Origin: Clostridia bacterium
GTDB lineage: Bacteria; Bacillota; Clostridia; UBA1212
Assembly: GCA_017444825.1 (NCBI GenBank)
Contig: JAFSVU010000015.1
Coordinates: 413-64,412, forward strand
Reading direction: 5' to 3'
Length of the DNA: 64,000 nucleotides
The position numbers and the translations under genes were made by a program. Numbering within the stretch: the first letter of the stretch is position 1; each line of letters begins with the position of its first letter. This document shows, piece after piece, positions 957 to 15,910 of the stretch. Below the pieces are notes generated by a model. That model searched no databases. It had not been told where the DNA came from and saw only the letters and a program-made list of their open reading frames with translations.

Positions 957-1043
957 TGGTGCGGATAGCAGGACTTGAACCTGTATGGAGTCGCCCCCAC
1001 ACGGACCTGAACCGTGCGCGTCTGCCAATTCCGCCATATCCGC
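957..1043 (-). tRNA. tRNA-Leu (anticodon CAG), class II with long variable arm
   Basis: Reverse complement reads GCGGATA-TG-GCGGAATTGGCAGACGC-G-CACGG-TTCAGGT-CCGTG-TGGGGGCGACTCCATAC-AGGTTCAAGTCCTGC-TATCCGC-ACCA. The 7-bp acceptor stem pairs. Anticodon loop TT-CAG-GT. T-loop TTCAAGT. CCA is encoded. Confidence 0.8.
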
Positions 1044-1074
1044 ATTGGCAACTCGTTTTCAGACGAGCGGGGTT

Positions 1075-1103
1075 ATGGTACTCCTTTTTCTCGCCGTTGT
1101 CAA
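1075..1103 (-). promoter_or_regulatory. putative sigma-A promoter of tRNA-Leu (-35 TTGACA at 1098-1103, -10 TACCAT at 1075-1080, 17-bp spacer)
   Basis: Read on the minus strand. The same TTGACA-18-TAcagT arrangement is conserved upstream of the pseudo-tRNA copy at 10649-10678. Confidence 0.4.
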
Positions 1104-1248
1104 GCTTTATTTGATCCGGGGCGGTAACAAGGTCAACGACAATAAGGCCGAAATACCCCGGCCTCCGTTGTCCGCCTGCATTTTCTTCCGCAAGCTTGCG
1201 TTTAAATTTCCAAAATGTCCGCGGTCCCGCGGGAGCCATTGGCGCTTT

Positions 1249-2586
1249 TTAGTTGTGATATCTGTCATACAGAATTTCACCGCAAAGACTCAGCTTTTCG
1301 CGGAGCGTCAATGCCGTGTCGCTGACGTATTCATCTGCCCACGAGTAAACCTCTTCGGGAATTTTGCCTTCGGTAAGAAGCTTGCCCTCCAGCGTACTTA
1401 TGAGTATACGGCTGCCTTCGAGATAATTGTTTAGCTTTTCCGCGAAAGAGACCATCGAGTCCACCGGCAATGGATCTTTGCCGTTTCGGTCAAAGCTTAC
1501 GGACATACCGTCTGCCGCGTAAAACCCTTCAGTCTCCGAATAGGCGTAGAGCACGAAGGTGTAGTTGGAGATGCCCTGGTTGGTGTAGGGACAGTATTGG
1601 AGTATGCAATACTTGCCGTCAACGGTACAGAGGCTGAAGCTGTTCCATTGTGGATGGTAGCAGCTGAGCGACAGATCAAGTGTCTTTTCACCCGCCCCAG
1701 TGGCTTTCAGAATGAAGACCGGCAGGGAGTCTTCGGTGTCCATCTGCACGATTTCAACATTTTCTGTCTTGCCGTCGCCGTTAAAGTCTTCCGACAGCTG
1801 CTTCAGCGTTTTGTATCGGCGGTGTATACTGTCCTCGATGAGCTTGGCGTTTTCGGAATCGAGCCTGTGGGCAAATTGCCACGGGTTGATGATATGCTCG
1901 AAGTCTCCGGCGGTGCTTGACGTGCAGAACAGATATTCCTGCCCTATTGCCACTGTGCAGTCATCGTCACCGCCAACGCAGATCACCGGCGCCGACCCGT
2001 CGGCTGCAAGGCCTGAAGCTATGAGCAACTCTGCCTGCTCGGTTTCATTGTATCCCTTGAGGCCGCCGATCTTGCATATCTTTGTCTCTTCCGAGACCGT
2101 CCCCTTTCGCCTTTCTCCTACGGTCACCGTGTAGACCGTATGGAGCATGGCGGACGCAGTTCCTTCTTCCGCGGGATCTACCGTTTTCCCTGTTTTAAGG
2201 TCAATAACGGCAAAAGAGATATCCGAAACAACGCCGGTGAAAATATTGGTCGAGGCGTCGATTATCTCCTCCGCGGTTTTGTATACAGGCCAGTCTGCGT
2301 TCACAACGTTGTACAGATAGCCTTCTGACTCCTTTGAGTCGCCGTCCTCAGTCGAAAGATCCTTCGGATAATCTCCGGGGTCCACAGGGTGTTTGCCGCC
2401 AAGGAACCGGATGCCGAGAACCGCGGCGACCGACGCGATCACAAGAACCGCGGCAAGGGAGACCGCCAGCACTTTTACCCGCGCCGCAGTCTTTTCCTCC
2501 TTCGCCTTCTTTTTTTCTATCATTTCACCGTATTCCGGACTGTTGACGATGGAGGACATAGTCTTCCTGAATTCACCGTTTTCCAT
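1249..2586 (-). CDS. anti-sigma-factor-like single-pass membrane protein (short cytoplasmic N-terminus, one TM helix, roughly 390-aa extracytoplasmic domain)
   Basis: 445 aa. A hydrophobic helix VKVLAVSLAAVLVIASVAAVLGI follows a charged N-terminus. The gene overlaps the upstream regulator gene by 14 nt (2573-2586), the usual sigma/anti-sigma arrangement. Confidence 0.55.
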   Translation of the reverse strand: MENGEFRKTMSSIVNSPEYGEMIEKKKAKEEKTAARVKVLAVSLAAVLVIASVAAVLGIRFLGGKHPVDPGDYPKDLSTEDGDSKESEGYLYNVVNADWPVYKTAEEIIDASTNIFTGVVSDISFAVIDLKTGKTVDPAEEGTASAMLHTVYTVTVGERRKGTVSEETKICKIGGLKGYNETEQAELLIASGLAADGSAPVICVGGDDDCTVAIGQEYLFCTSSTAGDFEHIINPWQFAHRLDSENAKLIEDSIHRRYKTLKQLSEDFNGDGKTENVEIVQMDTEDSLPVFILKATGAGEKTLDLSLSCYHPQWNSFSLCTVDGKYCILQYCPYTNQGISNYTFVLYAYSETEGFYAADGMSVSFDRNGKDPLPVDSMVSFAEKLNNYLEGSRILISTLEGKLLTEGKIPEEVYSWADEYVSDTALTLREKLSLCGEILYDRYHN

Positions 2587-3073
2587 TTTTGTGCTCCTTC
2601 AGAAACTGCCTGAGTTTTCTTCTGAGTCTCGAAAGTCTCATCCTGACCGCAGGCTCTGTCATGTTAAGCTCGTTGGCGATAGTCTTGACCGTTTTCATAA
2701 ACGAGTACCGTCCCGTGAAGATCACGTTGTCCTTCGAATTCTGTTTCGACAGAAAATCCCGCAGCGCAGTCTCGAGCTCATGAGCCTCCCTGTTTTCCGA
2801 AGAGACATCAGATGCCATTTCTTCTATTTCGGCATCGATGATCCCGAGCTCCGCATGCGAGGCGTAGGCGTACCCTTTATCGCCAATGATATCGCTTTCA
2901 GCTACTCCGAAGAGCTTCGCCATTCCGGAAACAGAGCAGCCGTCAGGCACACGGGTGCCTGCCTCCCACATTGCCACGAGGGACCGGGACACGAAAAGGC
3001 GGTCCGCAAGATCCTGCTGTGTCAGGCCGTTATCATTTCTCAGTTTGGCGATGATCTCTTGAGTATCCTTCAT
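2573..3073 (-). CDS. two-HTH regulator: N-terminal XRE-family helix-turn-helix fused to a C-terminal sigma-70 region-4 (ECF-type) domain, with no region 2
   Basis: 166 aa. LRNDNGLTQQDLADRLFVSRSLVAMWEAGTRVP is a Cro/C1-type HTH. VIFTGRYSFMKTVKTIANELNMTEPAVRMRLSRLRRKLRQFL matches sigma-70 region 4.2. No sigma region-2 motifs lie between them. Confidence 0.6.
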   Translation of the reverse strand: MKDTQEIIAKLRNDNGLTQQDLADRLFVSRSLVAMWEAGTRVPDGCSVSGMAKLFGVAESDIIGDKGYAYASHAELGIIDAEIEEMASDVSSENREAHELETALRDFLSKQNSKDNVIFTGRYSFMKTVKTIANELNMTEPAVRMRLSRLRRKLRQFLKEHKNGKR

Positions 3074-3430
3074 TCTTTATCCCGTTGTCAAAAGCAATGC
3101 CGACAGTGCCGCAAAAGTATGACCGGTCACTTTTGCCCTTTCATTCTATCACAACCAAGGACGTATGTCTGTCACAAAAGGTAACAGGTCCAAGTTCCCT
3201 GAAACCGCGGGACGAAAGGCCTCATGCCGGGTCAAACCCCTTGCAATACTTCCGCGCGGTTCAGAAAAGCTTCAAGCCGTTTTCTCAGCTTGAGAAGCTT
3301 TATATGCAGATAAAAATCGAGAAAAAAAGCGTCGATAGCCATAAAAATCCGAAGGCAATGGCATCGAATGAGATTGGCTGGATTGATGAAAAAACAACCC
3401 CGAAGCATTGAATTTCGAGGTTGCTTCATG

Positions 3431-3571
3431 TTGCGGAACCGCCGCCTTGAACCTGTATGGAGTCGCCCCCACACGGACCTGATGGTAGCGTGACCTTGGT
3501 GAAAAATGTGTGCCAGCGAATATCTTTCCTGCGCATTATCCACTAATACTATTCCGTACCAGTCCACTATT
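3431..3571 (-). repeat. att-like repeat copy 3 (attP-like: B arm + 29-bp tRNA core + A-prime arm); its 45-bp stretch 3439-3483 is identical to 10540-10584
   Basis: The 29-bp core tgtatggagtcgcccccacacggacctga lies at 3455-3483. The B arm (3484-3571) is homologous to 150-226. The A-prime arm ccgccgccttgaacc is shared with the copy at 10540-10554. The repeat abuts the immunity-gene stop codon. Confidence 0.75.
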
Positions 3572-3930
3572 TAGGATAAATCAAAACTTGTATAACCCAA
3601 TTCAATTATTGCCCTTTCCAAGTCAAGAAATAATCTTACAGCGGATTGCCTTTTAAACAAATGCCATAACAGATTATCTCTCAAGACCACCTTAATTTTG
3701 GGTTTAGAATAAAAAATAAATGATAGACTTGTAATGTCCCTAGTAGCCACGCACAAAGAATTAGTTTTATTCTCAATAGAGTAGTTTTGAGCGCATTCTT
3801 TTAGAGAAATTAAAAGCTTTTTATTTTTGGAATGAAGAATTATACAGTCATTATTAATTTCAAATGAACGAGGACTAAATACATTAATCATTTGAAGATG
3901 TGCCTCCTTTTTATTGTGTAAGAAAAACAT
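3571..3930 (-). CDS. putative cognate immunity protein for the RHS C-terminal toxin
   Basis: 119-aa low-GC ORF immediately downstream of the RHS gene, overlapping it by 20 nt (3911-3930). This is the typical position of toxin-immunity pairs in RHS/WapA loci. Confidence 0.5.
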   Translation of the reverse strand: MFFLHNKKEAHLQMINVFSPRSFEINNDCIILHSKNKKLLISLKECAQNYSIENKTNSLCVATRDITSLSFIFYSKPKIKVVLRDNLLWHLFKRQSAVRLFLDLERAIIELGYTSFDLS

Positions 3931-6900
3931 TAATTATTTCATAGCCAAGCGCTCTTAATGCAGCTATTCTATGATGACCATCTGCGATTTGATACAACCC
4001 TTCTCCTATTTCTGAAACAAAAATTTTCCCGTATCCATCTTGAGGGATAGATTTGATATAATTTTCTATGACACCTTCTGCTGGTCCAACAGTGACAAAA
4101 TCGTCTGATGGATTGTTAACTATTCTATCAAGTTTTACTTTAGTTGGCACTATACCTGATTTTTGCAACAATTTTCTAATCTCGAATATAGCTGCACCGA
4201 TTATAGCACCGCCTGCTGTAGCGACAACTGTACCGCTGTTTCCTTTCTCATTAAACTCCTCTACTGAATTCGAAGTGGAAGCAGCTGACAAAACCGCCAT
4301 GCCATAAACAGCGGCCGAGCCTATAAACGCTCCAGCTGCAATAGTTGACGCTGTTGTAACACCAGCAATTCCAGAGGCAACTAAACCAACAGTAGTTGCT
4401 GCTGCAGCAAATCCTCCACAAGTAATAACAGTCGCAGCAGCACAAGCCACAACAATAGCCGCGCCTATAGCCCAATGCCACCATGCTTTTCCGCTAGGAT
4501 CAATATGGTTTACCGGATCATTCCCGCAATAACAGAACAGGTTCGTTCCAAGCGGTCCGTCCTGCAGATTCAGTTGCGAATCTGGATTTATGAATCTTCC
4601 CATTACAGGATCATAATATCTGCTCTGCAGATAATAAAAGCCGGTCTCTTTATCGTAATAATAGCCGCGGTATCTGATAGGATTGATGTAACCTATGCTC
4701 GTTGTGTCATTCGTGATGTCATTGCCGCTGCCATCTTTAATCGATACGACAGAGCCCCATGTATCGTAGGTATAAACAGCAACGACCGCGCCTGAACTGT
4801 TAATTATGTGAGTTACATCCCCCTGAATATTTCTCACATATCTGTAATGCGATGTCCCCGATCCGTTCTGATAATATGAAAACCCGCATACGCGTCCCGC
4901 TCCGTCGAAATCATAGACGATCTCATAAGAGCCGTCCGTTGCCCACTCTGATCTAAGTCTGTTGCCGATCCAACAGTACTTAATAGTTGTCAAATTTAGA
5001 GTATTGGAAATGTGGGATTTTTGCGTTCTGAGACCGTCAGCGTCATACACGTAATTGTACGGAAATGTGACTCCGTAGCCTTTGGCTGAAGCAAGTCTGT
5101 TCCCCTGCGTCCATGTTAGATCTCTTAGGAAATATTTTGTCGGATTGTATATCGCATCATAGCCGAAATATGTAGAAGTTCCGTAATATGTGGTCAAAAG
5201 ATCGCTGTACGAGTTCAAATACCCGCTGACAGCAAAGGCAACATGCTGAACGCTTGACTCGAGATTTTGTGTTAACACGGTCGGGCTGTACGGAAATGTA
5301 ATCTTTGCGGTTCTGTTTCCTCGATTATCGTAGTAGTATTTGATCGTGTATCCGTTCCCGCTATTCAGCTTTTTGTTGTCTTCACGAATGAGCTGCCCCA
5401 ATGAATCGTATTCAAAGTTGTGGGTTTGAACACCTTTTTCCGAAATCGTCTTGATCTTTCCGTTTTCATAATAGGTGTATGTCAAAGTCGGTACGGATGA
5501 TATTGAACATGTTTCCGAGGAAACAAGAGCAGTCTCATTCGAAACGCTATAGAAATGATCATTGTACAAGACGCTGCTTGTTTTTGTAAGATACGTATAT
5601 GATTTGGTTAACGGAGTGCTTGAATTGCCGTAACTCGATGATGTGATCCTTCCGAAATTATCGAATGTAATAACCTTTTTCGCAAAAGTACCGGTCCCGG
5701 TTATTGTCTTATTGCCTTCGTCAACTGTTGTTATCGACCTGTACTCCAATCCTGTAAAAGCTGTTGTAAAACGTTCGTATTCCGTATTCGTGCCCGTAGA
5801 GTAATGATAGGTCACTTCATTGCCGTCGCTCGAAAGGATATATACAAGTTTTCCTTCCTGATCGTAACTGTATTCTTTTGTGACAGTACCGGCGGAATTC
5901 GACCGGTCGATATATTTAACAACGTTCCCTTTCTGGTCATAAAACCATGCGAAAGTCGCATTGTCCACAGTTGCGTTTGCCGAAAAAGCTATGAATTTAA
6001 GATTTCCCTGAGCATCGTAACTGTAATACTTTGTCTGACCGTTTCCATAATCCAGCCTTGTCAATAAACCGTATACTCCGTATGTGTAGGAGGCCATGTT
6101 TCGAAGCAGGCTTGCATTGCTGTCTAAAATGGAAAATGAAGTCTTTTTACCCTCATTGTTTCTATCAAAACAATAGGAAATAGTATCTCCGGTGACACTT
6201 ATGCTGTCCGCGGAATAGCTCATTCCGAACGAAGCAGTTCCGACGGTTTCCGAAGACAAGCGTCCGTATGAATCGTACGTGTAGTAAGTGACCGTTCCGT
6301 CTCCGTCAGTAACAGACAGGAGATCCTGCGTTGTCAAAGAATAGGAATATGTGATATATCTTCCCGAATCGTCTGTTTCCTTTTCAAGCAAAGATCCGTC
6401 AGACGAATAAATAAAGAACCGGTGAGATGTCTCATTGCCGTTTGTATCCACTTCTATTTCGGTTACGCTTCCGTGCGAGTTATACGCATAATACGTTTGC
6501 GTGCAAATGTCAGAGCTACCTGCGGCGCTCGGAACGAACAATTCGGTGACTGACGTGATCTGTGTCGGAATCAGACTGTTGTACTCATATGTTACCGTTG
6601 TCTCGTTGTTTCTTCGATCATTTGAAACCGTTTCGGTAAGCAGTGAAGGGATATACGGATCATACGAGTATTCGGTCCATATGCCCGAAAAAGTCCTCTC
6701 TTTTTCAATTCGCCCTAACAGATCATAATAGTATAAACTTCTGTCCGAATAGTCGCCTATCTTGTTAACATATTCCACCGTAACACCGCCGAACAGAACG
6801 TCGGTATAGTTGTAGTCATTTACGAGACTGACGGTGACGTAGCCCGAATAGCTTTCTACGGGGATTATTACACTAAAAAACTGCCAGTCCTTCGTCGCAG

Positions 6901-9900
6901 AAGAAAACAGGAATTCTTCATCCGGGACATTTCCGTTGCCAAAATGCAGAACTATTCCGAATCTTCCTGTGGTGACAGCTTTGCCTTTACCGAATCCGCT
7001 GACAACAAGATACGCTCCGGAATATACGGGTGTAGACAGCACCTGGCTGACACTCCTCGTTTGACCTATGTTTCCCGGAACCGATATACTTCTGATACGT
7101 TCGTTTGTGACAACGGTCGGAGTAAACGATCCGCTCACTGTCCATGCGGATAACCCGTTATAGAACCCGCTGTCGGAGATCTGATTTGCCGGTCTTGAAT
7201 TTGCACCCTCAGTGAGCGAAACAAGGTCGAAATATAGATTGCCGCTGAGATTTTTGACGCCAATGAGTATGTATATGCTCCCTGCCGTTGCCGAATCCGG
7301 TATTTCAAATGTGTACTGGGCAGTCGCGTCGAGATCATAATTGAGACAAGGAGAAAGCAATCTTACGTTCGAAGTAGAAGCAGTGTTGTACATTATCCCA
7401 AGGACAACTCCTCCGAATCCGTTTAATGATGCAACATCTACATCGGCAGACAGAGTGTATGTTTTCCCGGGCACTGCGGCCGACACCGGATACTTTGCGT
7501 AGACTTCCGAAGACTGACTCGACGAATACAGTCTGAAACAATCACTTCCGTGTTTTGACGATAAAAAATGACCGCTGGTATCCGCGGAATAAAGACCTCC
7601 TGACCCGGACACGGAATACAAAACCCACGAACTGGTTTTTTCCGAGAAATCTTTTACAAGATTGCTGTCGACCATCAAAGACGAAGTCTTACCGGTAACG
7701 AGATGCATATTCGACAGATCTTCGCCGTCATATTCACTCCCGGAAACGTTTCCGTAGCTGTCAAATACCGAGGATGTCCGTCCGTTTCTGTCAAAATATA
7801 TGTACTCTGTCCAGATAGCGTCAATGGACAGAAAACCATACCTGTAACCATATTCGGTATGGTCTCCATACGTGATATATGCTATCTCACTCATACCATA
7901 AACGCCTTCGTCGTCTGCAGCGTATTTAATGATATATGATACCCGGTTTATTCCGTTAGTTGCGCCCGAGGTGTATCCAAACTGAACATATTGTCTGTCA
8001 TAGGTCTCGGCAGATGTTTTTCTGTACCCGAATCGGGATATGGTTCCGTTTGTGTTGTATGCAAATGTGCTACTTTCCCCAGAAGATGTGTTTATTGCTG
8101 TAAGATAATTGCCGGTATATGAGAAAGAAATACCGCGCAGAGGACAATCCGCGTTTTCGACTGTCGTAAGTCGCGAGCCGCTATAGACAAAATCGATCTC
8201 CAAACCGCTTCCGTCAAAAACACAATTAATTTGAGAAGATGATCCTGAATAACAGATTATATAGCTATCACCGTATTCATTTTCGAATTCGCAAAGATAA
8301 CCGTAAGAATTGAAATATGCCTTACTTCCATCGCTGAATTCGATCATCCTTGCTGCCGGATCGTAGAGATCGAACGGATTTTCTTCGGAGAAATAAAAAT
8401 AGCCCGACCCGGGGACAAAGTAGTGTTTTGCTCCGGTTCCGTCTGTAAGGACATAATAGGTGTATGTGTCGTCGTTGATATCCGTGACTGTCTCTGCCTT
8501 CATCGTCTGCATTATCGAAGGTCTCCAGCCTGTTCCGTAATATGTATCCGTCGCCGTGCCGATAAATGAAGAATTAAACACCAGATCAACGGACACAGGC
8601 AATATCTCACCTTTAGTGGAAATCCCCGGATGAATGAATGTCAAATCACCATTTATGTCTTTGATACATGCCGTTCCTGAACCGTCAATGGAAATTCTGT
8701 GAGTGGACTGATATGAATTAAGTCCTGAGTGATCCGCATAAGTAATTTGAAGTGCAGTAAGGACACTATGTGCAAAAGACGGCATTGTTCCGTAAAGGCA
8801 TTCCGCTCCAAACATGAATCCATTGTTTGCGCCTGAAAAAGTGTGGCGCATTACATTGGTGATATCAAGATCAAAATAGATATTTGCATAAGGTAGGAAA
8901 ATATACTGGTTCCTGCAGGAATCCGTCAGTCCCTCAAAAGCGGAAGGAACCGAAGGCAGTGTTCCTCCCGCCAGGACTGCCTGTGGAGACCACGTATCAC
9001 TGATCATTTCAGACCGAAACGCATAGGTGCCGGTGTAAGTGACCGGGGATGAATTATTGACACTAAATGATGCTACTGCATGCGTGATAACTGCACTGTC
9101 GGGAATTCCGTTTAAAATACAGTCATCAAATTTGATGTAAGAAACCGTGTTTGCGCCCACTGCGATCGTATTCCACCGCGTTGAGCCGTTGACATATACT
9201 GCCTCATAAGCGTAATCATCATCCGGATACGAAATGCTGATCGTAGGATCGATTTTGACGGGAAATTCCCTGTTCTCATCATTTATCCACTCTGCATCGG
9301 CAATGACAGTGATAAGATAACCGTTTTCGGTTTCAACAAGAGTGAGAAAGACTTGATCCGAACATTCGTCCTTGGCGTCTTTCATATACTCTGCGGTCAA
9401 TTTGTAAACTGCGTTTCCGGATTCATCATATATGAAAACACAGTTGTCTTTTAGCAAAGCACTGCTGTTATTTACTGAAAGAATAAACGGGTATACGTAC
9501 TGTTCGAAACCGCCCTCGTTTACGACAATATTTTCTTTTATCTCATAGGGCTTTATCGAATATTCAAGAGAAGCGGAAGGAGAAGTGTCAGAACCTGAAA
9601 ACAAATTATTGTAAACAACAGTCCCGTTCTCACAGGGGTTTTCGGTCAGCAGTTCATCATCGGTGTGAGTAGCCGATTCATACCGTGCCTCAGAAGGTTC
9701 TGCTAAAGAAGTAACGGGAGTAAGAGAAAGAGATACACCGTTGTAATCAAGATCAATTAGTTCATTGGCGTCTTCCGAAGAAGCAGCAAACGAGAGTGTA
9801 TAGGGAGCATCGGTAGTTGAAAGTCGTCCCTCCTGCTCGTGAAGAGTAAGGTTGATCTTCTTCCATACTCCCTCACCGGTTTTGTAATTGACCGGGCTGC

Positions 9901-10357
9901 CGAACACTAAACGTGTATGGTTACCGTTTCTAAGAGCATAATCTCTCGTAAAAGCACTGTTAAGATCCGGTTTCTGATAGCTGACATCGGAGCGTTTGTA
10001 GGGATCAATGTTCTCGACAGTCGCAGGTTGCCCGAGTTTTTCCAGCGCAAGCTGTTCATATTCCGATAATTTGTCAGGATATGATATCTCACCGGGTACA
10101 GGATCACCTTCGGGCGTTTCAGGATATTTGGGCAATGCGGTATAGTCAGGATCAAGAAGCGTTGCGGGTGATTCTTCAGCATAAACATTTGAAAAGATCC
10201 TTGTCGGTATCAACGTGGCAAATATTGCCAAAACAAGGACAATCGCAACAGTTTTGATACCTATGCTGAAATGCCTAATGTTGTTATCCATTATTAACAC
10301 TCCGAAATGAGCCGATGCATACGATGCATACTTTCTTTTTATGCTTTGATTATACAT
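3911..10357 (-). CDS. RHS/YD-repeat polymorphic toxin (WapA-like, secreted) with a C-terminal ParB/Srx-like nuclease toxin domain
   Basis: 2148 aa. An alternative start at 10291 (GGAG ribosome-binding site) gives MDNNIRHF...SNVYA|EE, a signal peptide. There are dozens of YD repeats (YTYDSYGRL, YSYDAQGNL, YSYDQEGKL, YVYDADGLRTQK, YTYDTWGSV). The RHS core ends YYLQSRYYDPVMGRFINPD and is followed by LFCYCGNDPVNHIDPSGK, a DPxG-type autoproteolysis motif. The C-terminal region (about 200 aa) has a Gly/Ala-rich hydrophobic segment followed by KIFVSEIGEGLYQIADGHHRIAALRALG, a ParB-type GxHRxxA box. GC content is lower than the flanks. Confidence 0.85.
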   Translation of the reverse strand: MYNQSIKRKYASYASAHFGVLIMDNNIRHFSIGIKTVAIVLVLAIFATLIPTRIFSNVYAEESPATLLDPDYTALPKYPETPEGDPVPGEISYPDKLSEYEQLALEKLGQPATVENIDPYKRSDVSYQKPDLNSAFTRDYALRNGNHTRLVFGSPVNYKTGEGVWKKINLTLHEQEGRLSTTDAPYTLSFAASSEDANELIDLDYNGVSLSLTPVTSLAEPSEARYESATHTDDELLTENPCENGTVVYNNLFSGSDTSPSASLEYSIKPYEIKENIVVNEGGFEQYVYPFILSVNNSSALLKDNCVFIYDESGNAVYKLTAEYMKDAKDECSDQVFLTLVETENGYLITVIADAEWINDENREFPVKIDPTISISYPDDDYAYEAVYVNGSTRWNTIAVGANTVSYIKFDDCILNGIPDSAVITHAVASFSVNNSSPVTYTGTYAFRSEMISDTWSPQAVLAGGTLPSVPSAFEGLTDSCRNQYIFLPYANIYFDLDITNVMRHTFSGANNGFMFGAECLYGTMPSFAHSVLTALQITYADHSGLNSYQSTHRISIDGSGTACIKDINGDLTFIHPGISTKGEILPVSVDLVFNSSFIGTATDTYYGTGWRPSIMQTMKAETVTDINDDTYTYYVLTDGTGAKHYFVPGSGYFYFSEENPFDLYDPAARMIEFSDGSKAYFNSYGYLCEFENEYGDSYIICYSGSSSQINCVFDGSGLEIDFVYSGSRLTTVENADCPLRGISFSYTGNYLTAINTSSGESSTFAYNTNGTISRFGYRKTSAETYDRQYVQFGYTSGATNGINRVSYIIKYAADDEGVYGMSEIAYITYGDHTEYGYRYGFLSIDAIWTEYIYFDRNGRTSSVFDSYGNVSGSEYDGEDLSNMHLVTGKTSSLMVDSNLVKDFSEKTSSWVLYSVSGSGGLYSADTSGHFLSSKHGSDCFRLYSSSQSSEVYAKYPVSAAVPGKTYTLSADVDVASLNGFGGVVLGIMYNTASTSNVRLLSPCLNYDLDATAQYTFEIPDSATAGSIYILIGVKNLSGNLYFDLVSLTEGANSRPANQISDSGFYNGLSAWTVSGSFTPTVVTNERIRSISVPGNIGQTRSVSQVLSTPVYSGAYLVVSGFGKGKAVTTGRFGIVLHFGNGNVPDEEFLFSSATKDWQFFSVIIPVESYSGYVTVSLVNDYNYTDVLFGGVTVEYVNKIGDYSDRSLYYYDLLGRIEKERTFSGIWTEYSYDPYIPSLLTETVSNDRRNNETTVTYEYNSLIPTQITSVTELFVPSAAGSSDICTQTYYAYNSHGSVTEIEVDTNGNETSHRFFIYSSDGSLLEKETDDSGRYITYSYSLTTQDLLSVTDGDGTVTYYTYDSYGRLSSETVGTASFGMSYSADSISVTGDTISYCFDRNNEGKKTSFSILDSNASLLRNMASYTYGVYGLLTRLDYGNGQTKYYSYDAQGNLKFIAFSANATVDNATFAWFYDQKGNVVKYIDRSNSAGTVTKEYSYDQEGKLVYILSSDGNEVTYHYSTGTNTEYERFTTAFTGLEYRSITTVDEGNKTITGTGTFAKKVITFDNFGRITSSSYGNSSTPLTKSYTYLTKTSSVLYNDHFYSVSNETALVSSETCSISSVPTLTYTYYENGKIKTISEKGVQTHNFEYDSLGQLIREDNKKLNSGNGYTIKYYYDNRGNRTAKITFPYSPTVLTQNLESSVQHVAFAVSGYLNSYSDLLTTYYGTSTYFGYDAIYNPTKYFLRDLTWTQGNRLASAKGYGVTFPYNYVYDADGLRTQKSHISNTLNLTTIKYCWIGNRLRSEWATDGSYEIVYDFDGAGRVCGFSYYQNGSGTSHYRYVRNIQGDVTHIINSSGAVVAVYTYDTWGSVVSIKDGSGNDITNDTTSIGYINPIRYRGYYYDKETGFYYLQSRYYDPVMGRFINPDSQLNLQDGPLGTNLFCYCGNDPVNHIDPSGKAWWHWAIGAAIVVACAAATVITCGGFAAAATTVGLVASGIAGVTTASTIAAGAFIGSAAVYGMAVLSAASTSNSVEEFNEKGNSGTVVATAGGAIIGAAIFEIRKLLQKSGIVPTKVKLDRIVNNPSDDFVTVGPAEGVIENYIKSIPQDGYGKIFVSEIGEGLYQIADGHHRIAALRALGYEIINVFLTQ

Positions 10358-10529
10358 CGTTTCCGACGGTCAAATCAATTGATTTTAAGCAGTTCATCGT
10401 AAGAGCAAGCGTCGCCTTTGGCTTGCCGATAAAGCGCAAGACCTTCGGCAAATGAACGGGCGGAAGCCCTGACCCACTTGCAAAAAACAATACAACCCCG
10501 AGAAAACGGTGATTCCCGAGGTTGTTTAA

Positions 10530-10620
10530 TGGTGCGCGGCCGCCGCCTTGAACCTGTATGGAGTCGCCCCCACACGGACCTGATACCTAAGCGCGTCTGC
10601 CAATTCCGCCATATCCGCAT
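10530..10620 (-). pseudogene. tRNA-Leu-derived pseudo-tRNA (attL-like: authentic 5-prime acceptor and D-arm, 29-bp core, foreign A-prime 3-prime end; anticodon and T stems no longer pair)
   Basis: The reverse complement begins GCGGATATGGCGGAATTGGCAGACGCGC, identical to the intact tRNA through the D-arm. It continues TTAGGTA-TCAGGTCCGTG...GGTTCAAGGCGGCGGCCGCGCACCA, which cannot form the anticodon stem, T stem or acceptor stem. Confidence 0.7.
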
Positions 10621-10648
10621 TGGCAATTCGTTTAAAACGAGCGGGGTC

Positions 10649-10678
10649 ACTGTACTCTTTTTGTCATACCCTTGTCAA
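10649..10678 (-). promoter_or_regulatory. retained tRNA-type promoter (-35 TTGACA at 10673-10678, -10 TACAGT at 10649-10654) upstream of the pseudo-tRNA, co-oriented with the RHS gene
   Basis: It has the same architecture as the promoter of the intact tRNA-Leu (1075-1103), and 55 bp of upstream sequence are conserved between the two loci. Confidence 0.35.
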
Positions 10679-10692
10679 GCACTGTTTGATTC

Positions 10693-10729
10693 GCGGCCGC
10701 CCCTCGGGGGAGAGGCGGCGCATTTTTTA
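10693..10729. terminator. GC-rich hairpin (gcggccgcccctc/gggggagaggcggc) flanked by an A6/T6 tract; terminator-like, orientation ambiguous
   Basis: The hairpin is followed by TTTTTT on the plus strand. The T-run overlaps the stop codon of the minus-strand gene 10727..15910. No U-tract follows the hairpin on the minus strand. Confidence 0.3.
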
Positions 10730-13700
10730 CTCAAACTTCCATTTGTCTTTTTCGTTGATCGTCACCCTGATCCTGTCTGTCAGGCTGAACGCTCCTGTGC
10801 GTGGGTTCCTGATGTACGCGCTCTCCGCCGTAAACGTTCCCTCCACAGCGCCGCGTATCACGTAGGATACCGAGATCTCAAAGCCGTATTCGGGGCAGTC
10901 CTGTCTGAACCAGTTATTCTCGTTTTCGTAGATGCGGTTGTGCAGCGAGACGCCTCCCGTCATATTCTGGCCGCTGCTGTTATAAATGTAAGCGTATGCC
11001 GCCACCGTTCCGGACTCATACCGGGAGGAGGAGCTCGAGTCGATCGAGAGGAATCTGGCACCCGACGGTATCAGATCATAGAGTTCAAAGTACTCGTTTA
11101 CTCTGGTCGATCTTCCGCTGATTCGGAGAGTCACCAGGCAGTTGCCGTGGGAGTCATTGGTCATTGCCTTGGTTATCGAGACACGGCCGTCAGACTTTTG
11201 TCCGTCCAAAAGGGCCTCCTCCATGGTTCCCCTGTAATACACTCCCACCTTTGTGTCTCCTGGCAGACTCGTCTTCAACGAGTCAAGCTCCTGCTTTGAA
11301 AGAGTCAACGTAAAACTGCATCCCGGTTCGATCTTTACCGTCTCGGACGATTCGCCGATAGTATAGGTAAATTCGAGAGCATCAGCGGCTTCCCGGGGCA
11401 GGAAATGCTTGATATACGCGGCAAGTGCTATTCTGTCAGACACCGAATTCGTTCTGTTTTCGGAAAGCCAAAGCGCCAGCTTCGCGGCATCTTCCCGGTC
11501 GATCCTTGCGGCGCTCATGAGGGCAAGGCAGGACAGCTGAACAGTCGTGTCAAAATCACCGGCTTCGAACTTCAGCGAGCCGTATTCGCTGTCTTCAACG
11601 CCAATTTCAGACTTTACAAGAGCATAGACGTCATGTGCCGCGGGGTAGTCGCCGCAGACGGCAAAACCAAGTGCCAGCAGGAGCTTCGCCTCCGGAGAGT
11701 AGTTGCCCGCTTTGTCTGCGATCACGTAAAGTGTATCCAGAACGGGTTCTCCCAGCGCCGCCAGTGACACGACATTCGAGATCAGTTTCTCGGGCGACTC
11801 CTGATCGGTCGAGTTGACCGACGTACTGCAGGCTGATGCTATGTAATTCAAGGTTTGAGTGTCAAACGGCAGCCCGAGAGTCAGTACCAGAGCAGTCAGT
11901 TCGGGATCCGGCTCCGAATAGGGGAATACCCGGAACTGTCCGTCCGAAGCCGAGAAGTTGTCCTTCGTCAGCCTCATGAGCCTTTCCTGCTCCTGATCCG
12001 CCTTGATTCCGTAGAGGGCTTCCCTTGCCGCGGCTGCCGCGTAAAGACCCGCATATTCATCGGTCCTGCCGCTTCCCCTGTCGTTTGACAGCAGGCTTGT
12101 TATCCTTTCGTAGAAAGCGTAGGACGGCGTTCTGTTCGCAAACACAACTTTAACGGGATAGTACACAGGCGTGATGGTCTTGAGTTCGGAAACAGCCAAT
12201 GATCTTCCCACATCCGCGGCAACGGCACTCGTCACGAGGGTGAAGTCCGTTGTCGCAGCATCTTTGTTTTCTCCGCATTCCGCGTACACGGTCACGTGGT
12301 ACTGTCCCGGCTCCGACAGCTCGAATTTCAGCCAGCACCTCTCCTTTGAGTCTGCGCTGCCCGACGTTCTTCCTTTTTCATTGCCGAGAGCATCCGTAAG
12401 CACCGCGGTGTAGTTGACCGTTCCCGTAGCTTCCGATCCGTAGGATCTTGCGCTGAGGGATATTGTATCGCCAACGATATACTGCTCGCATATTCCTACA
12501 TTTACGAAGAAAGGCAGGGTGCAGATCACGTCCGAGACCGATGCGCCGATCTTCAGCTTTCCGTTTTCGGAGCCCGTGCCGCAAAGCGCATATGTCGAGA
12601 TCCTCCATGAAGTGATGTTGTCGGGGACGGTGAAGACCAGTGTCCCGCAGCCGTCACTGTCGAGTTCCACCACGTCATAGACCGGATTGTCCGCGAAATA
12701 CTTTCTTATATACCAGTCCGAGCTGCCGATGCCGCCGTCGCTGAGCCCTTCTGATTCGGGAGCCGCGCCCGGCCTTTCATCTGATAACGACAGAGAGTTA
12801 TCGGAACCGCCCTTTGAGCTCTTGGAGCCATTACTGTATGAAAGATCTCCGTAATCAACGTCCGAGTTTGTAAATGCCGGTTTAAACCTTGCGTTCATGA
12901 GAAACGTCGCTGCGCTCGACCGCTGTTTCGAGAAAATGCTCAAGGGCTCTATCTCCTGATCGCCGAGGGCAAAGCAGGCTTCATCGACGATGCTGACCAC
13001 AGCAACTCCGCCTCCTGCTCCGGGCACCTGAATCTTAATAATGGCTTTGTCCCCGGGCTTGTACGTATCCGAAGACGGGGTGATCACGGGTTTCAGCGTC
13101 GCATTGGCGGTGTCGTACCTGATCTCTTCGCCGGGTATCAGATACTCTCCGGTGGAGGAGTCGAAGACCACGGCGTAGAGATATCCGTCCGCTATCATAC
13201 TGTCGGTAAACGAAAACCGTACTTTTGACCCGTATTCCACCCCATAGATCCCGTTTGATCTTATAACAAACAGCGCTTTCCTCTTCTCCGGCGCAGTCCA
13301 GATCTCCGCCTCCACAGTGTCGCTTACCGAGTAGGTTTCGTCATTGAACAGGATCTCGGCCGTCAGGGATTGGTTGCTGCCGGAATAACCGGTGCCCGTC
13401 TTGCCCGCGGTACCGTTTAACGTATAGGTGTAAGTGTTGTTGCTCGTGTCATCGTAGAATGACACTTCGTAGGTGTAATATCCCTCAAACCCGCTGACCT
13501 CAAGGAGCGGGAACTCCGCAACACCGTTGACAAAGGACTTGACGTCGCTTTCGACCTGACTCTTGCGTACCTCGCAGGTATAATATTTAACGTTTTTCTT
13601 GGTGTATGAGTCGTACCTGGTCTTTTCGGTCCTCACTATGACGTTCTTCCAGAGCGTATAGGAAAGCGCATTTGCGGCTGACAGAGGCTCGCCAACGGTA

Positions 13701-15910
13701 TTCTCCGGGAACACACGCCAAAGCATGTCCTCCGGGGTCTTAAGGCCCGAAGTATCCCTCCGGTTCAAGGTGACGACAGCATTGGTTTTGTCCTGCCTCG
13801 TTGCCACGCAATAGTCGGAATGGAAATAGGGCACGCTATCCTGAACATACAGGTACTGCGTCTCGAAATTTGTGAGCTCGGCCGCAAAATACAGCGTGAC
13901 CGGGTTCGTTCCCCTGACCTCCCGATCGGTAAGATTCCGGGATTTATATACGATCTTCGCCTCGCCTTTTTCATCGGTCCTGACCGTCTGATGAGCATCG
14001 CCAAAGTAAGACAGCATGCAGTAAAACTCAAGGCCCTCCGCGGGGGTTCCGTCAAAGAACGATGCCGTAAGAGTCACTGTTATCTGTTCGCCTCTGCGGT
14101 AGAAAAGCTTGTCGAAGCTTATCGAGGCTGTGTACTGGGGCTTTTGTTCCTCTGTGATCCTGAAGGTGCCTGAAGTCAGGATGCGCCCGCTTTCATCGCT
14201 GAATTTCAGCTGATAATAGCCCTGGGAGCAGCGGGAATACGTGAACGATCCCCGGAAAAATCCGTTCTTGTCCACTTCCACCCTGGTCTTCAGCGTCGAA
14301 AGACCGGTCTCCAGATAAAGATGGTCGGGAACCGTTCCACCGAAGGAAGGCGTGATATATCCGCTGAAGTTGATGGTGTCGTCGGAAAAATAGACTTCTC
14401 TGTCGGTATAGACGTAGCTGAGATAGTAGTCGTATGTGTCTTCGGGTCTCACCGCTGCGCAGACGACGATCCCGTCCGAGCCTTTTTCAGCAATGATCAC
14501 GGCGGAATAAGCTTCGCTGCTGTCAAACTCGGCGATTCCCGATGCGTCTGTTTTTACTTTCTGCTGCTTGCCGACAATTTCAGCGTTCCACCCTTCATTC
14601 CTGCTGAGCAGGCTCACCGTCACGTCGGCACCTTCCACAGGGCCTTCGGCATTGGCTATGCTGTTGATCCAGATGATGGACTTGCCGTTTGACGATACGG
14701 TGTACGGACGGAGATTGGACACCTGGATGATGACCGACTTTGTGTCCTTGAGGGTCTTTCCGAATCCGTAAGAAACGGAAGCTGTGATCTTTGCGACGTA
14801 AACACCCTTGGCAAGACCTGTGCCGAGATCCAGATAACAGTTTGTCGTATACCTGTCTTTTTCCGTTTGAGGGGTAAAGGTCCCTACCTTGGTCAGCCCG
14901 GAAAGATCGGGTCCGGAGCCGGTATCGTCCCCCGCCCGTGTCTCGAAGTCGATTATCGTGTCGGCGGCCTCCTTTGCGGATCCGAAGGAATACAGATCGC
15001 AGGTGACGTTCGGGGTCTCGGTTATACTGGTGTATACAGTAAACCTCATGACTGCGTCCGACCTTGGCGAGAAGATGTTGTCCCATCCGTCGTTGGATGT
15101 CGTCAGTATCCGTATAAACTCTCTGGAGTCTGAGCCGAGTGCGCTTTCGTAGGCTTTTGTGCAGGTTCTGAAGGTCGCCGTTTTACCGCTCTCCAAAGTC
15201 CTGCCCGATATGCCCTTTATCCCACTGTTTACGGTGACGGTATATACGGTGTTGTACAAGAGCTTCGATGACGGGCGGAACAGCACGGTCCTTCCGTTCG
15301 GATAAACGGAAAACTCGCCCTTGACCTCAGGCGACACCGTGAAATACTTCATGCCCGGTTCGGAGACGACGGCCTCGGAAAAAGTCACCTCTATGCCCGT
15401 GTCCACAGGCACGTTCAGCGTCTTGTCTCCGGGGAACATCGAAGTGACCACCATATCGTTCTGAGTCTGGAATGCATACGACGCGGCGGGATTCTCCGGA
15501 TCGCCGAGGGTCAGTCTATATATCTGCCCCGGCACCAGTTTACCCGACGAGGGGACGATCCTGAATTTATTTGAAGACAGCCTGGTAACGGAAGTCGCGA
15601 TGGCCGGCGTCATCGTCAGATAATTCGCAAGGGTCTCCACGTCGGTCTCCCCTGAAGTCTCGACAATAAACGCGCCGTCAACGGGTATCACGCCTGAGCT
15701 GACCCCGTCCGCGGTGATCTTAACGCTTGAAAGCTCCGAGGGAAGCACCGGGCTCTTGCCCGAATAGTCTCCGCCCGTAAAAACAATTGGCTCGGGATCG
15801 GGGAAACCACTCCCTCCCGTATTTCTGCAGCCGCTGAGCAGGCCTCCCATGGGGAGCGCCGAAACAAGCATCACAGCGGCAATGATAATAGAGATAACAC
15901 GTTTTTTCAT
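10727..15910 (-). CDS. giant lipoprotein built of tandem Ig-like/MG-type beta-sandwich domains; possibly alpha-2-macroglobulin family, thioester-less
   Basis: 1727 aa. Lipobox MKKRVISIIIAAVMLVSALPMGGLLSGC. Repetitive beta-rich modules are followed by an alpha-helical domain near residues 1200-1400. No CxEQ thioester motif was found. Confidence 0.55.
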   Translation of the reverse strand: MKKRVISIIIAAVMLVSALPMGGLLSGCRNTGGSGFPDPEPIVFTGGDYSGKSPVLPSELSSVKITADGVSSGVIPVDGAFIVETSGETDVETLANYLTMTPAIATSVTRLSSNKFRIVPSSGKLVPGQIYRLTLGDPENPAASYAFQTQNDMVVTSMFPGDKTLNVPVDTGIEVTFSEAVVSEPGMKYFTVSPEVKGEFSVYPNGRTVLFRPSSKLLYNTVYTVTVNSGIKGISGRTLESGKTATFRTCTKAYESALGSDSREFIRILTTSNDGWDNIFSPRSDAVMRFTVYTSITETPNVTCDLYSFGSAKEAADTIIDFETRAGDDTGSGPDLSGLTKVGTFTPQTEKDRYTTNCYLDLGTGLAKGVYVAKITASVSYGFGKTLKDTKSVIIQVSNLRPYTVSSNGKSIIWINSIANAEGPVEGADVTVSLLSRNEGWNAEIVGKQQKVKTDASGIAEFDSSEAYSAVIIAEKGSDGIVVCAAVRPEDTYDYYLSYVYTDREVYFSDDTINFSGYITPSFGGTVPDHLYLETGLSTLKTRVEVDKNGFFRGSFTYSRCSQGYYQLKFSDESGRILTSGTFRITEEQKPQYTASISFDKLFYRRGEQITVTLTASFFDGTPAEGLEFYCMLSYFGDAHQTVRTDEKGEAKIVYKSRNLTDREVRGTNPVTLYFAAELTNFETQYLYVQDSVPYFHSDYCVATRQDKTNAVVTLNRRDTSGLKTPEDMLWRVFPENTVGEPLSAANALSYTLWKNVIVRTEKTRYDSYTKKNVKYYTCEVRKSQVESDVKSFVNGVAEFPLLEVSGFEGYYTYEVSFYDDTSNNTYTYTLNGTAGKTGTGYSGSNQSLTAEILFNDETYSVSDTVEAEIWTAPEKRKALFVIRSNGIYGVEYGSKVRFSFTDSMIADGYLYAVVFDSSTGEYLIPGEEIRYDTANATLKPVITPSSDTYKPGDKAIIKIQVPGAGGGVAVVSIVDEACFALGDQEIEPLSIFSKQRSSAATFLMNARFKPAFTNSDVDYGDLSYSNGSKSSKGGSDNSLSLSDERPGAAPESEGLSDGGIGSSDWYIRKYFADNPVYDVVELDSDGCGTLVFTVPDNITSWRISTYALCGTGSENGKLKIGASVSDVICTLPFFVNVGICEQYIVGDTISLSARSYGSEATGTVNYTAVLTDALGNEKGRTSGSADSKERCWLKFELSEPGQYHVTVYAECGENKDAATTDFTLVTSAVAADVGRSLAVSELKTITPVYYPVKVVFANRTPSYAFYERITSLLSNDRGSGRTDEYAGLYAAAAAREALYGIKADQEQERLMRLTKDNFSASDGQFRVFPYSEPDPELTALVLTLGLPFDTQTLNYIASACSTSVNSTDQESPEKLISNVVSLAALGEPVLDTLYVIADKAGNYSPEAKLLLALGFAVCGDYPAAHDVYALVKSEIGVEDSEYGSLKFEAGDFDTTVQLSCLALMSAARIDREDAAKLALWLSENRTNSVSDRIALAAYIKHFLPREAADALEFTYTIGESSETVKIEPGCSFTLTLSKQELDSLKTSLPGDTKVGVYYRGTMEEALLDGQKSDGRVSITKAMTNDSHGNCLVTLRISGRSTRVNEYFELYDLIPSGARFLSIDSSSSSRYESGTVAAYAYIYNSSGQNMTGGVSLHNRIYENENNWFRQDCPEYGFEISVSYVIRGAVEGTFTAESAYIRNPRTGAFSLTDRIRVTINEKDKWKFE

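Follow-up and report, generated by a model that had tools for sequence, protein, structure and literature searches.

What might a sigma-70 region 4 be doing in a protein that is not a sigma factor? The question is raised by a two-gene operon found in a 64,000-nucleotide stretch of DNA (hereafter the window) from a member of the Clostridia of lineage UBA1212 (assembly GCA_017444825.1, contig JAFSVU010000015.1). The first gene encodes a small DNA-binding protein (the regulator), in which a repressor-type XRE helix-turn-helix (HTH) is followed by a region 4 of the extracytoplasmic function (ECF) type, and the second a membrane protein (the partner) with the topology of an anti-sigma factor (Table 1). 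Pairs of ECF sigma and anti-sigma factors rank as the third pillar of signal transduction in bacteria. Surveys of ECF factors require both a sigma-2 and a sigma-4 domain (PMC7826278), and a regulator family of the kind described here is therefore filtered out by design. The reading that we favor, at about even confidence, is that regulator and partner form a self-contained, self-regulating and membrane-gated transmembrane signaling pair. What makes the family worth attention is the role that region 4 could have outside a sigma factor, when it is found together with a repressor HTH and a gating that resembles that of anti-sigma factors.

An XRE domain fused to sigma-70 region 4

The regulator is a genuine fusion of an XRE-HTH and a sigma-70 region 4, without region 2. 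Pfam places HTH_3 on amino acids 8 to 60 (E value of 1.6e-9, 38.1 bits for a cut-off of 23) and Sigma70_r4 on amino acids 118 to 156 (3.3e-8, 33.4 bits, cut-off of 24.1), and Sigma70_r4_2 also scores above its gathering cut-off (27.9 versus 25.7 bits). The NCBIfam model TIGR02937 (sigma70-ECF) is matched with 49.1 bits (cut-off of 42.9) over model positions 92 to 165 of 165 only, i.e., over the linker and region 4. No match to Sigma70_r2 was obtained along the 166 residues at a Pfam E value of 10 or less, and none to region 2 in NCBIfam either. When the sequences of the PDB were searched with the profile of the family, the N-terminal half led to XRE repressors and the C-terminal half to sigma factors; a profile of the C-terminal half by itself retrieved sigma region 4 exclusively (SigF, SigL, RpoS, SigA, and SigW).

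The AlphaFold model (predicted local distance difference test [pLDDT] of 90.6, predicted template modeling score of 0.82) consists of a five-helix N-terminal domain, one linker helix (amino acids 73 to 87), and a four-helix region 4. The N-terminal domain superposes in Foldseek on the XRE domains of CapH-N, P22 c2, ImmR, and C.AhdI, with root mean square deviations of 1 to 2 Å and target template modeling scores of 0.85 to 0.90, and no solved structure matched the two-domain arrangement as a whole. Since the N-terminal domain has an XRE fold, no space is left for a sigma-2 domain. This is a difference from an ECF sigma factor, in which region 2 stands where the regulator has its XRE-HTH; because of the replacement, the regulator is unable to bind the β′ coiled-coil or to melt the −10 region and cannot be a sigma factor alone. 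The composition that an earlier, sequence-only reading had proposed for these 166 amino acids is thus borne out by Pfam, NCBIfam, the PDB profiles, AlphaFold, and Foldseek. Profile searches of both halves and the structure came back negative for the two findings that would speak against it, a cryptic region 2 and an unsupported region 4.

A conserved family in Clostridia

Thirteen full-length homologues, all sharing these domains as precomputed, came out of a word-indexed search and were the basis of a first alignment (A1). By exhaustive profile search, about 65 of the best 150 representatives (of clusters at 50% identity) had the two-domain layout, matched at full length and in a single stretch, with sizes of 143 to 211 amino acids plus one longer protein. 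Sixty members were aligned across both domains (alignment A2). HTH_3 is present in all 60 and Sigma70_r4 in 59 of them, and region 2 is not among the 25 Pfam families that they match most frequently. In this alignment the XRE domain, a canonical one, shows high conservation, with its recognition helix kept across the family. A comparison by eye with the promoter subtypes described below showed that the recognition helices of both XRE and region 4 vary between promoter subgroups. Many of the top matches in the profile search (P0021 to P0024, P0027, P0030, and others) were long proteins, from 350 to 4162 amino acids, with 4 to 34 tandem XRE-HTH repeats; their high scores come only from repeated matches to the N-terminal half of the profile.

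The named carriers are Ruminococcus, Mageeibacillus, “Clostridia bacterium” and Bacillota metagenome-assembled genomes, and the family is also found in metagenome assemblies. Two pairs coexist in one genome of Mageeibacillus sp. UBA1212. Current annotations are generic, such as “helix-turn-helix domain-containing protein” or “transcriptional regulator with XRE-family HTH domain.” When A1 was used to scan genomes, metagenomes, and viral contigs, it recovered mostly generic XRE proteins, with family members only at loci L007 to L011 and L087 to L091 and in none of the viral contigs. The phage, plasmid, and IMG/VR collections had no member of the family, and the phage and plasmid collections, PADLOC, and PHROGs matched the regulator at the domain level only. 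Word searches of the literature found no description of an XRE domain fused to sigma region 4. Regulator and partner look like a conserved type of pair in Clostridia, an undescribed variant of the signaling pairs made up of a regulator and a membrane protein; the recurrence of both architecture and gene coupling in 15 of 15 independent loci cannot be a matter of chance.

A membrane partner with a conserved cytoplasmic peptide

The two genes are tightly coupled. The 14-nucleotide overlap with the gene of a single-pass membrane protein, already pointed out in the sequence-only reading, is real, and the AAGGAG Shine-Dalgarno sequence of the partner lies inside the 3′ end of the regulator gene. 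We compared 15 loci (the window, L002, L003, L004, L007 to L011, L087 to L091, and L167), and in every one of them the start codon of the partner falls between 14 nucleotides inside the regulator gene and 1 nucleotide past its stop. All 15 partners have the same plan: a cytoplasmic segment of 28 to 62 residues is followed by a single, strongly hydrophobic helix, and about 180 to 580 residues make up the C-terminal part. For the partner of the window, the Kyte-Doolittle maximum is 2.85 over amino acids 32 to 65, and its AlphaFold model is helical, with low confidence, over amino acids 17 to 60; as a model of the whole protein it is unusable (pLDDT of 39.9, too few homologues).

What lies outside the membrane is of very different kinds. 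Among the 15 loci, all 105 pairs of regulators are similar to each other, versus 8 of the 105 pairs of outside domains, some of which share Pro/Thr-rich linkers only. Pfam searches of seven other partners gave only serpin or VWA matches (two and one, respectively), always in the outside part. The partners of L007 (5489-7039) and L008 (2432-4006) are membrane-anchored serpins that keep the conserved cytoplasmic peptide; the serpin match of the former has an E value of 1.8e-72, and the latter is 79% identical to it across the outside part. The VWA domain belongs to the partner of L010. In the window, the outside part has an N-terminal module in common with the lipoprotein-like P0020 and a C-terminal module in common with P0018 and P0019. 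Its C-terminal 385 amino acids have no match in Pfam or NCBIfam, and the complete partner, searched at E values of 10 or less, gave nothing except a weak DUF3364 match, with no known anti-sigma domain.

By contrast with the outside domains, the cytoplasmic N terminus comes in two flavors that follow the regulator. One of them, M-x3-E-F-x2-(T/V)-(L/M)-x2-I...S-x-E-(Y/F), accompanies regulators with a long linker, including that of the window, and the other, (D/E)-(L/F)-x2-A-(I/F)-x2-(I/V)-D-x2-(L/Y), those with a short linker. A regular expression for the peptide followed by a transmembrane helix, run over the ca. 1.1 Mb of fetched DNA, hit partner proteins only, and missed some of them, including that of the window. 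The same fetched loci held no canonical ECF sigma pairs with which the peptide could be compared. A case in point is that of the partners of the window and L167, which have 62% identity in the C-terminal outside module and N-terminal peptides of different types, each matching its own regulator subgroup. The type of peptide thus tracks the subgroup and not the outside domain, from which it follows that the conserved unit is made up of regulator, peptide, and transmembrane helix, with the outside domains being exchanged. This is the behavior to be expected from a peptide that contacts the regulator, and we propose amino acids 1 to 38 of the partner as the putative regulator-binding site. The gene coupling, the topology, and the conserved N-terminal peptide are in indirect support of such a contact.

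The partner lacks the ASD, zf-HC2, RsgI_N, and FecR signatures of anti-sigma factors. Since it matches no known anti-sigma domain family, the RskA class included, calling it “anti-sigma” is an analogy based on topology and synteny. Sigma-like domains that work as pure protein-binding decoys are known, e.g., PhyR (PMC8103513), and the region 4 of the regulator might likewise be a mimic that does nothing but titrate the membrane protein, which in this case would be the anti-sigma factor of an ECF sigma encoded elsewhere. We consider this very improbable. No ECF sigma gene is linked to the pair in any of the locus gene lists (L001 to L006 and L167 to L171), the XRE recognition helix is conserved family-wide, and the conserved element at the promoter of the operon, described below, argues for DNA binding. 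The family also points to a group of surface proteins, sensors or effectors so far without annotation, in Clostridia of the rumen and gut. Serpins anchored in the membrane and proteins with a VWA domain are among them, and their expression is probably controlled by a signal.

A conserved element adjoining the −35 of the operon promoter

Upstream of the regulator gene there is a 17-bp inverted repeat, TGTTAC-N5-GTGACA (3170-3186, spacer CTTTT), centered near −42. The hexamer TGTGAC (3171-3176) covers positions −40 to −35 when the −10 hexamer is set at −12 to −7, and 22 nucleotides separate it from a TG-extended −10, TAGAAT (3143-3148). An independent consensus scan called the same promoter, as CAGACA-17-TAGAAT with TG, in which the −35 hexamer CAGACA is poor. 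We aligned the upstream regions of 14 loci, anchored on their −10 hexamers. In 12 of them TGT-N2/3-C is found directly 5′ of the −35 position, and the −10 is TG-extended in 10. In the subgroup of the window, the spacing is strict. The combination TGTGAC-N22-TAnAAT has seven matches in 111 kb of subgroup loci versus one in 917 kb of unrelated loci, and TGTGAC and TAnAAT were not found at any other spacing from 15 to 28 in the subgroup loci. Five of the seven sites are regulator promoters; of the other two, one precedes a SpoIID-like operon in L002 and one has a divergent orientation in L087. Within the window, the only site is the promoter of the pair itself. A predicted element with such an exact spacing makes the system directly testable.

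The second site of L002 (2148-2181, TGTGAC-N22-TATAAT) is located about 3.9 kb upstream of the regulator gene, and the operon behind it, which codes for a 604-amino-acid protein with a weak SpoIID match and a 296-amino-acid protein, is a candidate member of the regulon. In the window, the leader between promoter and regulator gene has a 26-nucleotide palindrome (Table 1) that contains a perfect 10-bp palindrome, TGACCGGTCA, with GTGAC-like half-sites. It was absent from the upstream regions of the other family loci inspected and may serve as an additional operator or form a hairpin in the RNA.

These promoters are not of the ECF kind. The −10 (TAGAAT or TATAAT) is of the sigma-A type instead of CGT-like, no ECF-type −35 (..AAC) is present, and the element lies 5 bp beyond the normal −35. 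Accordingly, the ECF sigma/anti-sigma arrangement inferred for the pair from the sequence holds in part: topology and gene coupling support it, and the sigma-A-type −10 and the lack of an anti-sigma domain in the partner do not.

How the pair may work

In the resting state of the signaling pair that we favor, the N-terminal peptide of the partner would keep the regulator at the membrane, in the way that anti-sigma factors restrain their sigmas. A signal at the outside domain, e.g., the binding of a ligand or proteolysis of the partner, would then release the regulator, and the free protein would bind to the family-specific element directly adjoining the −35 in the promoter of its operon. Once bound, it would most likely activate RNA polymerase carrying sigma-A, giving positive feedback on the operon and switching on a few operons nearby. 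This last step is the least certain. Activation is favored because the −35 hexamers of the subgroup are poor and the site occupies the position of a class II activator. Lambda cI bound at OR2, near −42, is a class II activator of this sort and contacts sigma region 4.

Several points weigh against this reading. Autorepression is the classical role of XRE proteins, and a site that overlaps the −35 can be used for repression, so that the sign of the regulation is its weakest step. The argument for an activator is weakened by several promoters of subgroups 2 and 3 whose −35 (TTTACA) is good, and in L003 and L087 the upstream half of the inverted repeat shows little conservation. The −10 anchors of the 14-promoter alignment were picked by eye. 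As for the gating, the N terminus of the partner matches no known anti-sigma domain in Pfam or NCBIfam, and the conserved gene order and N-terminal peptide could reflect constraints of co-translation or membrane insertion.

A rival reading is that of an ordinary XRE-type autorepressor that happens to have an extra HTH, shuts its own operon through an operator overlapping the −35, and never touches the membrane protein, which would be no more than regulated surface cargo. The canonical and highly conserved XRE domain is what such a repressor would have, its site overlaps the −35 region, a promoter with such a strong TG-extended −10 could fire without any activator, and the outside domains of the partners (serpin, VWA) are as effector-like as they are sensor-like. 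However, simple autorepression accounts neither for the retention of an entire sigma region 4 by 59 of 60 members nor for the overlapping or adjoining start and stop codons of 15 of 15 loci, and it leaves unexplained why the same subgroup-tracking cytoplasmic peptide is attached to unrelated outside domains. We regard it as unlikely, albeit a serious competitor of the gated pair.

The rigid distance between element and −10, as in sigma-type promoters, together with the poor −35 hexamers of the subgroup and a region 4 that is complete and of ECF type, could also be read as the signature of a substitute in promoter recognition. Region 4 would dock on the β-flap in place of that of sigma-A, or pair with an unlinked region-2 protein, for which the split sigma factor SigO-RsoA offers a precedent (PMC7826278, PMC8103513), and RNA polymerase would be redirected to TGTGAC located 22 nucleotides upstream of a TATAAT −10. 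But the element lies 5 bp upstream of where a −35 hexamer would be, and a flap-bound region 4 is not known to work with such a geometry. Moreover, no small region-2-like gene appears in the locus gene lists (L001 to L006, L167 to L171), and the conserved block 957-3506 of the window contains only the two genes of the pair. All in all, such a substitution seems quite unlikely. A signal-gated version of it, equally doubtful, would make the regulator a detachable “−35 reader,” whose region 4, once the protein is released, replaces or joins that of sigma-A on the β-flap, with either the XRE domain or the region-4 helix reading TGTGAC 22 nucleotides upstream of a normal −10. If true, this would be a cellular and signal-gated case of sigma appropriation and, in evolution, an intermediate that links one-component repressors to ECF sigma factors.

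Comparison with known systems

The gated pair has parallels among described systems. With the group IV (ECF) sigma factors and their anti-sigma factors it shares the ECF-type region 4, the downstream gene, co-translated with the first, whose membrane protein has a short N terminus in the cytoplasm, one transmembrane helix and a variable outside domain, and a conserved element at its own operon promoter, suggestive of autoregulation. By analogy, its logic seems even closer to that of the LytTR systems, in which a regulator and a membrane inhibitor are encoded together and positive feedback comes from repeats located directly upstream of the −35 (PMC6193735). Two such systems of Streptococcus mutans, HdrRM and BrsRM, are likewise two-gene operons for a DNA-binding regulator and a membrane protein, have the site of the regulator (here, the conserved element) immediately upstream of the −35 of their own operon, and are distinct from both two-component and ECF systems (PMC6193735). 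In contrast, our regulator is built from XRE and sigma-4 domains, its element is a single TGTGAC or an inverted repeat instead of direct repeats, and its partner is a single-pass protein with a large outside domain, for which an inhibitory role is only supposed. The pair belongs to neither family, as there is no sigma-2 domain and Pfam finds no LytTR domain in the regulator.

SigO-RsoA, in which a sigma factor is split into separate region-2 and region-4 proteins (PMC7826278, PMC8103513), resembles the regulator, judging from reviews, in having a polypeptide with sigma region 4 and without region 2. It differs in that the regulator has an N-terminal XRE-HTH and no RsoA-like region-2 gene is linked to it in the gene lists of L001 to L006 and L167 to L171, although a highly divergent protein of the RsoA kind may be encoded elsewhere. 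The pair can also be compared with phage systems. The lambda cI-type activators have an XRE-type HTH too, and the 17-bp inverted repeat centered near −42 would be in keeping with their mode of action, but the regulator has a sigma region 4 attached instead of a C-terminal oligomerization or peptidase domain. A good −10 combined with a non-canonical upstream element is likewise reminiscent of lambda cI and of sigma appropriation by MotA/AsiA of phage T4. Cellulolytic Clostridia have Sigma-I/RsgI pairs, in which Sigma-I, unlike the regulator, includes a region 2 and RsgI a defined N-terminal domain that was not detected in the partner. These pairs are similar in that they are found in related organisms, as several paralogous pairs per genome with differing outside domains (PMC7826278).

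The pair is located in a tRNA-Leu integration hot spot

The pair sits in an integration hot spot at a tRNA-Leu gene, with different mobile elements landed on either side. The window has four tRNA-Leu-derived repeats that share an identical 37-nucleotide core. Besides the intact gene there are two partial copies, one at 95-173 and another bounding the pair (Table 1), and a pseudo-tRNA at 10529-10633. The latter retains the 5′ half of the tRNA and the upstream flank, and the flank beside it (10631-10697) is similar to 1057-1122; its 3′ acceptor strand has been replaced, which is why ARAGORN missed it.

Table 1. Coordinates of the features of the pair and its surroundings in the window
Feature	Position	Strand	Description	Evidence
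Regulator gene	2573..3073	−	166 aa; XRE HTH, family-specific linker helix, and sigma-70 region 4, in this order	ORF (open reading frame), Pfam/NCBIfam, alignments A1 and A2, AlphaFold
XRE/Cro-C1 helix-turn-helix domain	2894..3052	−	aa 8-60	HTH_3, Foldseek
Sigma-70 region 4	2588..2785	−	aa ~97-162; 4.1 + 4.2, four helices, ECF type	Sigma70_r4, Sigma70_r4_2, TIGR02937
Partner gene	1249..2586	−	445 aa, single-pass membrane protein	ORF, hydropathy
Partner cytoplasmic N terminus	2473..2586	−	aa 1-38; amphipathic conserved peptide (MENGEFRKTMSSIVNSPEY...), then Lys-rich stretch	15 N termini compared
Partner transmembrane helix	2410..2472	−	core, aa 39-59	Hydropathy
Partner extracytoplasmic part	1252..2409	−	aa 60-445, two modules	Modules shared with P0018-P0020
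Operon promoter	3143..3186	−	Inverted repeat, TGTGAC, TG-extended −10	Sequence, consensus scan, 14-locus alignment
Leader palindrome	3111..3136	−	26 nt, 8-bp arms: GCAAAAGT-GACCGGTCAT-ACTTTTGC	Sequence
Terminator-like hairpin past partner gene	1144..1165	−		
Intact tRNA-Leu(CAG)	957..1043	−	One boundary of the module	ARAGORN
Partial copy of tRNA-Leu 3′ part (att-like)	3428..3506	−	Other boundary of the module	Repeat comparison
RHS-repeat protein gene	3911-10357	−	2148 aa	ORF
ORF after RHS gene	3571-3930	−	119 aa, no match	ORF
DUF4304 ORF	226-621	−	131 aa, equivalent position after intact tRNA	ORF

Between the tRNA-Leu repeats (1043-3428) there are only the genes of the regulator and its partner, with no integrase or recombinase gene among them, and the direct repeats derived from the tRNA 3′ end that flank a tRNA-integrated island are present. 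The sequence-only reading had placed the pair between the tRNA and an att-like copy, and this is correct; the span that it gave to the copy (3431-3571) merges the partial tRNA with an unrelated repeat at 3540-3571. The 2.55-kb module from 957 to 3506 is 99% identical to four metagenome contigs, L168 to L171. In L168 to L170 the similarity to the window ends exactly at 957 and 3506, and L171 ends inside the module, so that only its boundary at 3506 can be seen. On the far side of the counterpart of 3506, these contigs have an element with a large serine recombinase and a tRNA-fragment copy of its own. Beyond the tRNA, the relatives have genes typical of integrative and conjugative elements (ArdA, DUF4314, LPD28, and YodL). 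The corresponding slots of the window are occupied by an RHS gene and an immunity-like ORF on one side and by the DUF4304 ORF on the other.

The vicinity of the RHS gene, which adjoins the pair, and the position between att-like tRNA-Leu repeats could suggest a link to the toxin cassettes, i.e., that the regulator might control the neighboring RHS toxin and immunity genes or the tRNA-Leu island. This has been largely refuted, and we give it hardly any credence. No RHS family was found among the called genes of the contigs that share the module at 99% identity, and with a near-identical module elsewhere without RHS genes a tie to the toxin cassettes is unsupported. Besides, the promoter element is found nowhere else in the window, the members of the family live in varied, non-RHS neighborhoods, and the phage, plasmid, and IMG/VR collections yielded none of them.

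Neighboring genes and mobile elements

In the slot held here by the RHS segment, L168 (4451-9158), and also L169 and L171, have an element of 4.6 kb. That of L168 codes for a large serine recombinase of 588 amino acids and for HTH_36 and HTH_26 proteins and has copies of the tRNA-Leu fragment at both ends, which suggests a serine-recombinase element that targets tRNA-Leu. The RHS segment itself (3507-10528), located between the copies at 3428-3506 and 10529-10633, resembles an island inserted in a second tRNA-Leu gene. The end of the RHS protein (...ADGHHRIAALRALGY...) resembles by eye a ParB/sulfiredoxin-type nuclease motif, for which Pfam at E values of 1e-4 or less gave no confirmation. The 119-amino-acid ORF and the DUF4304 ORF are each followed by the same repeat (3540-3571 and 196-227, respectively). 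The pseudo-tRNA adjoins a gene (10727-15910, minus strand) for an alpha-2-macroglobulin-like protein of 1727 amino acids (Big_5, A2M_BRD, A2M, and MG2), and genes for a rhamnosidase-like enzyme and for a GH3 enzyme that includes an F5/8 type C domain follow farther along the window. These three genes fit a polysaccharide degrader living in the gut or rumen.

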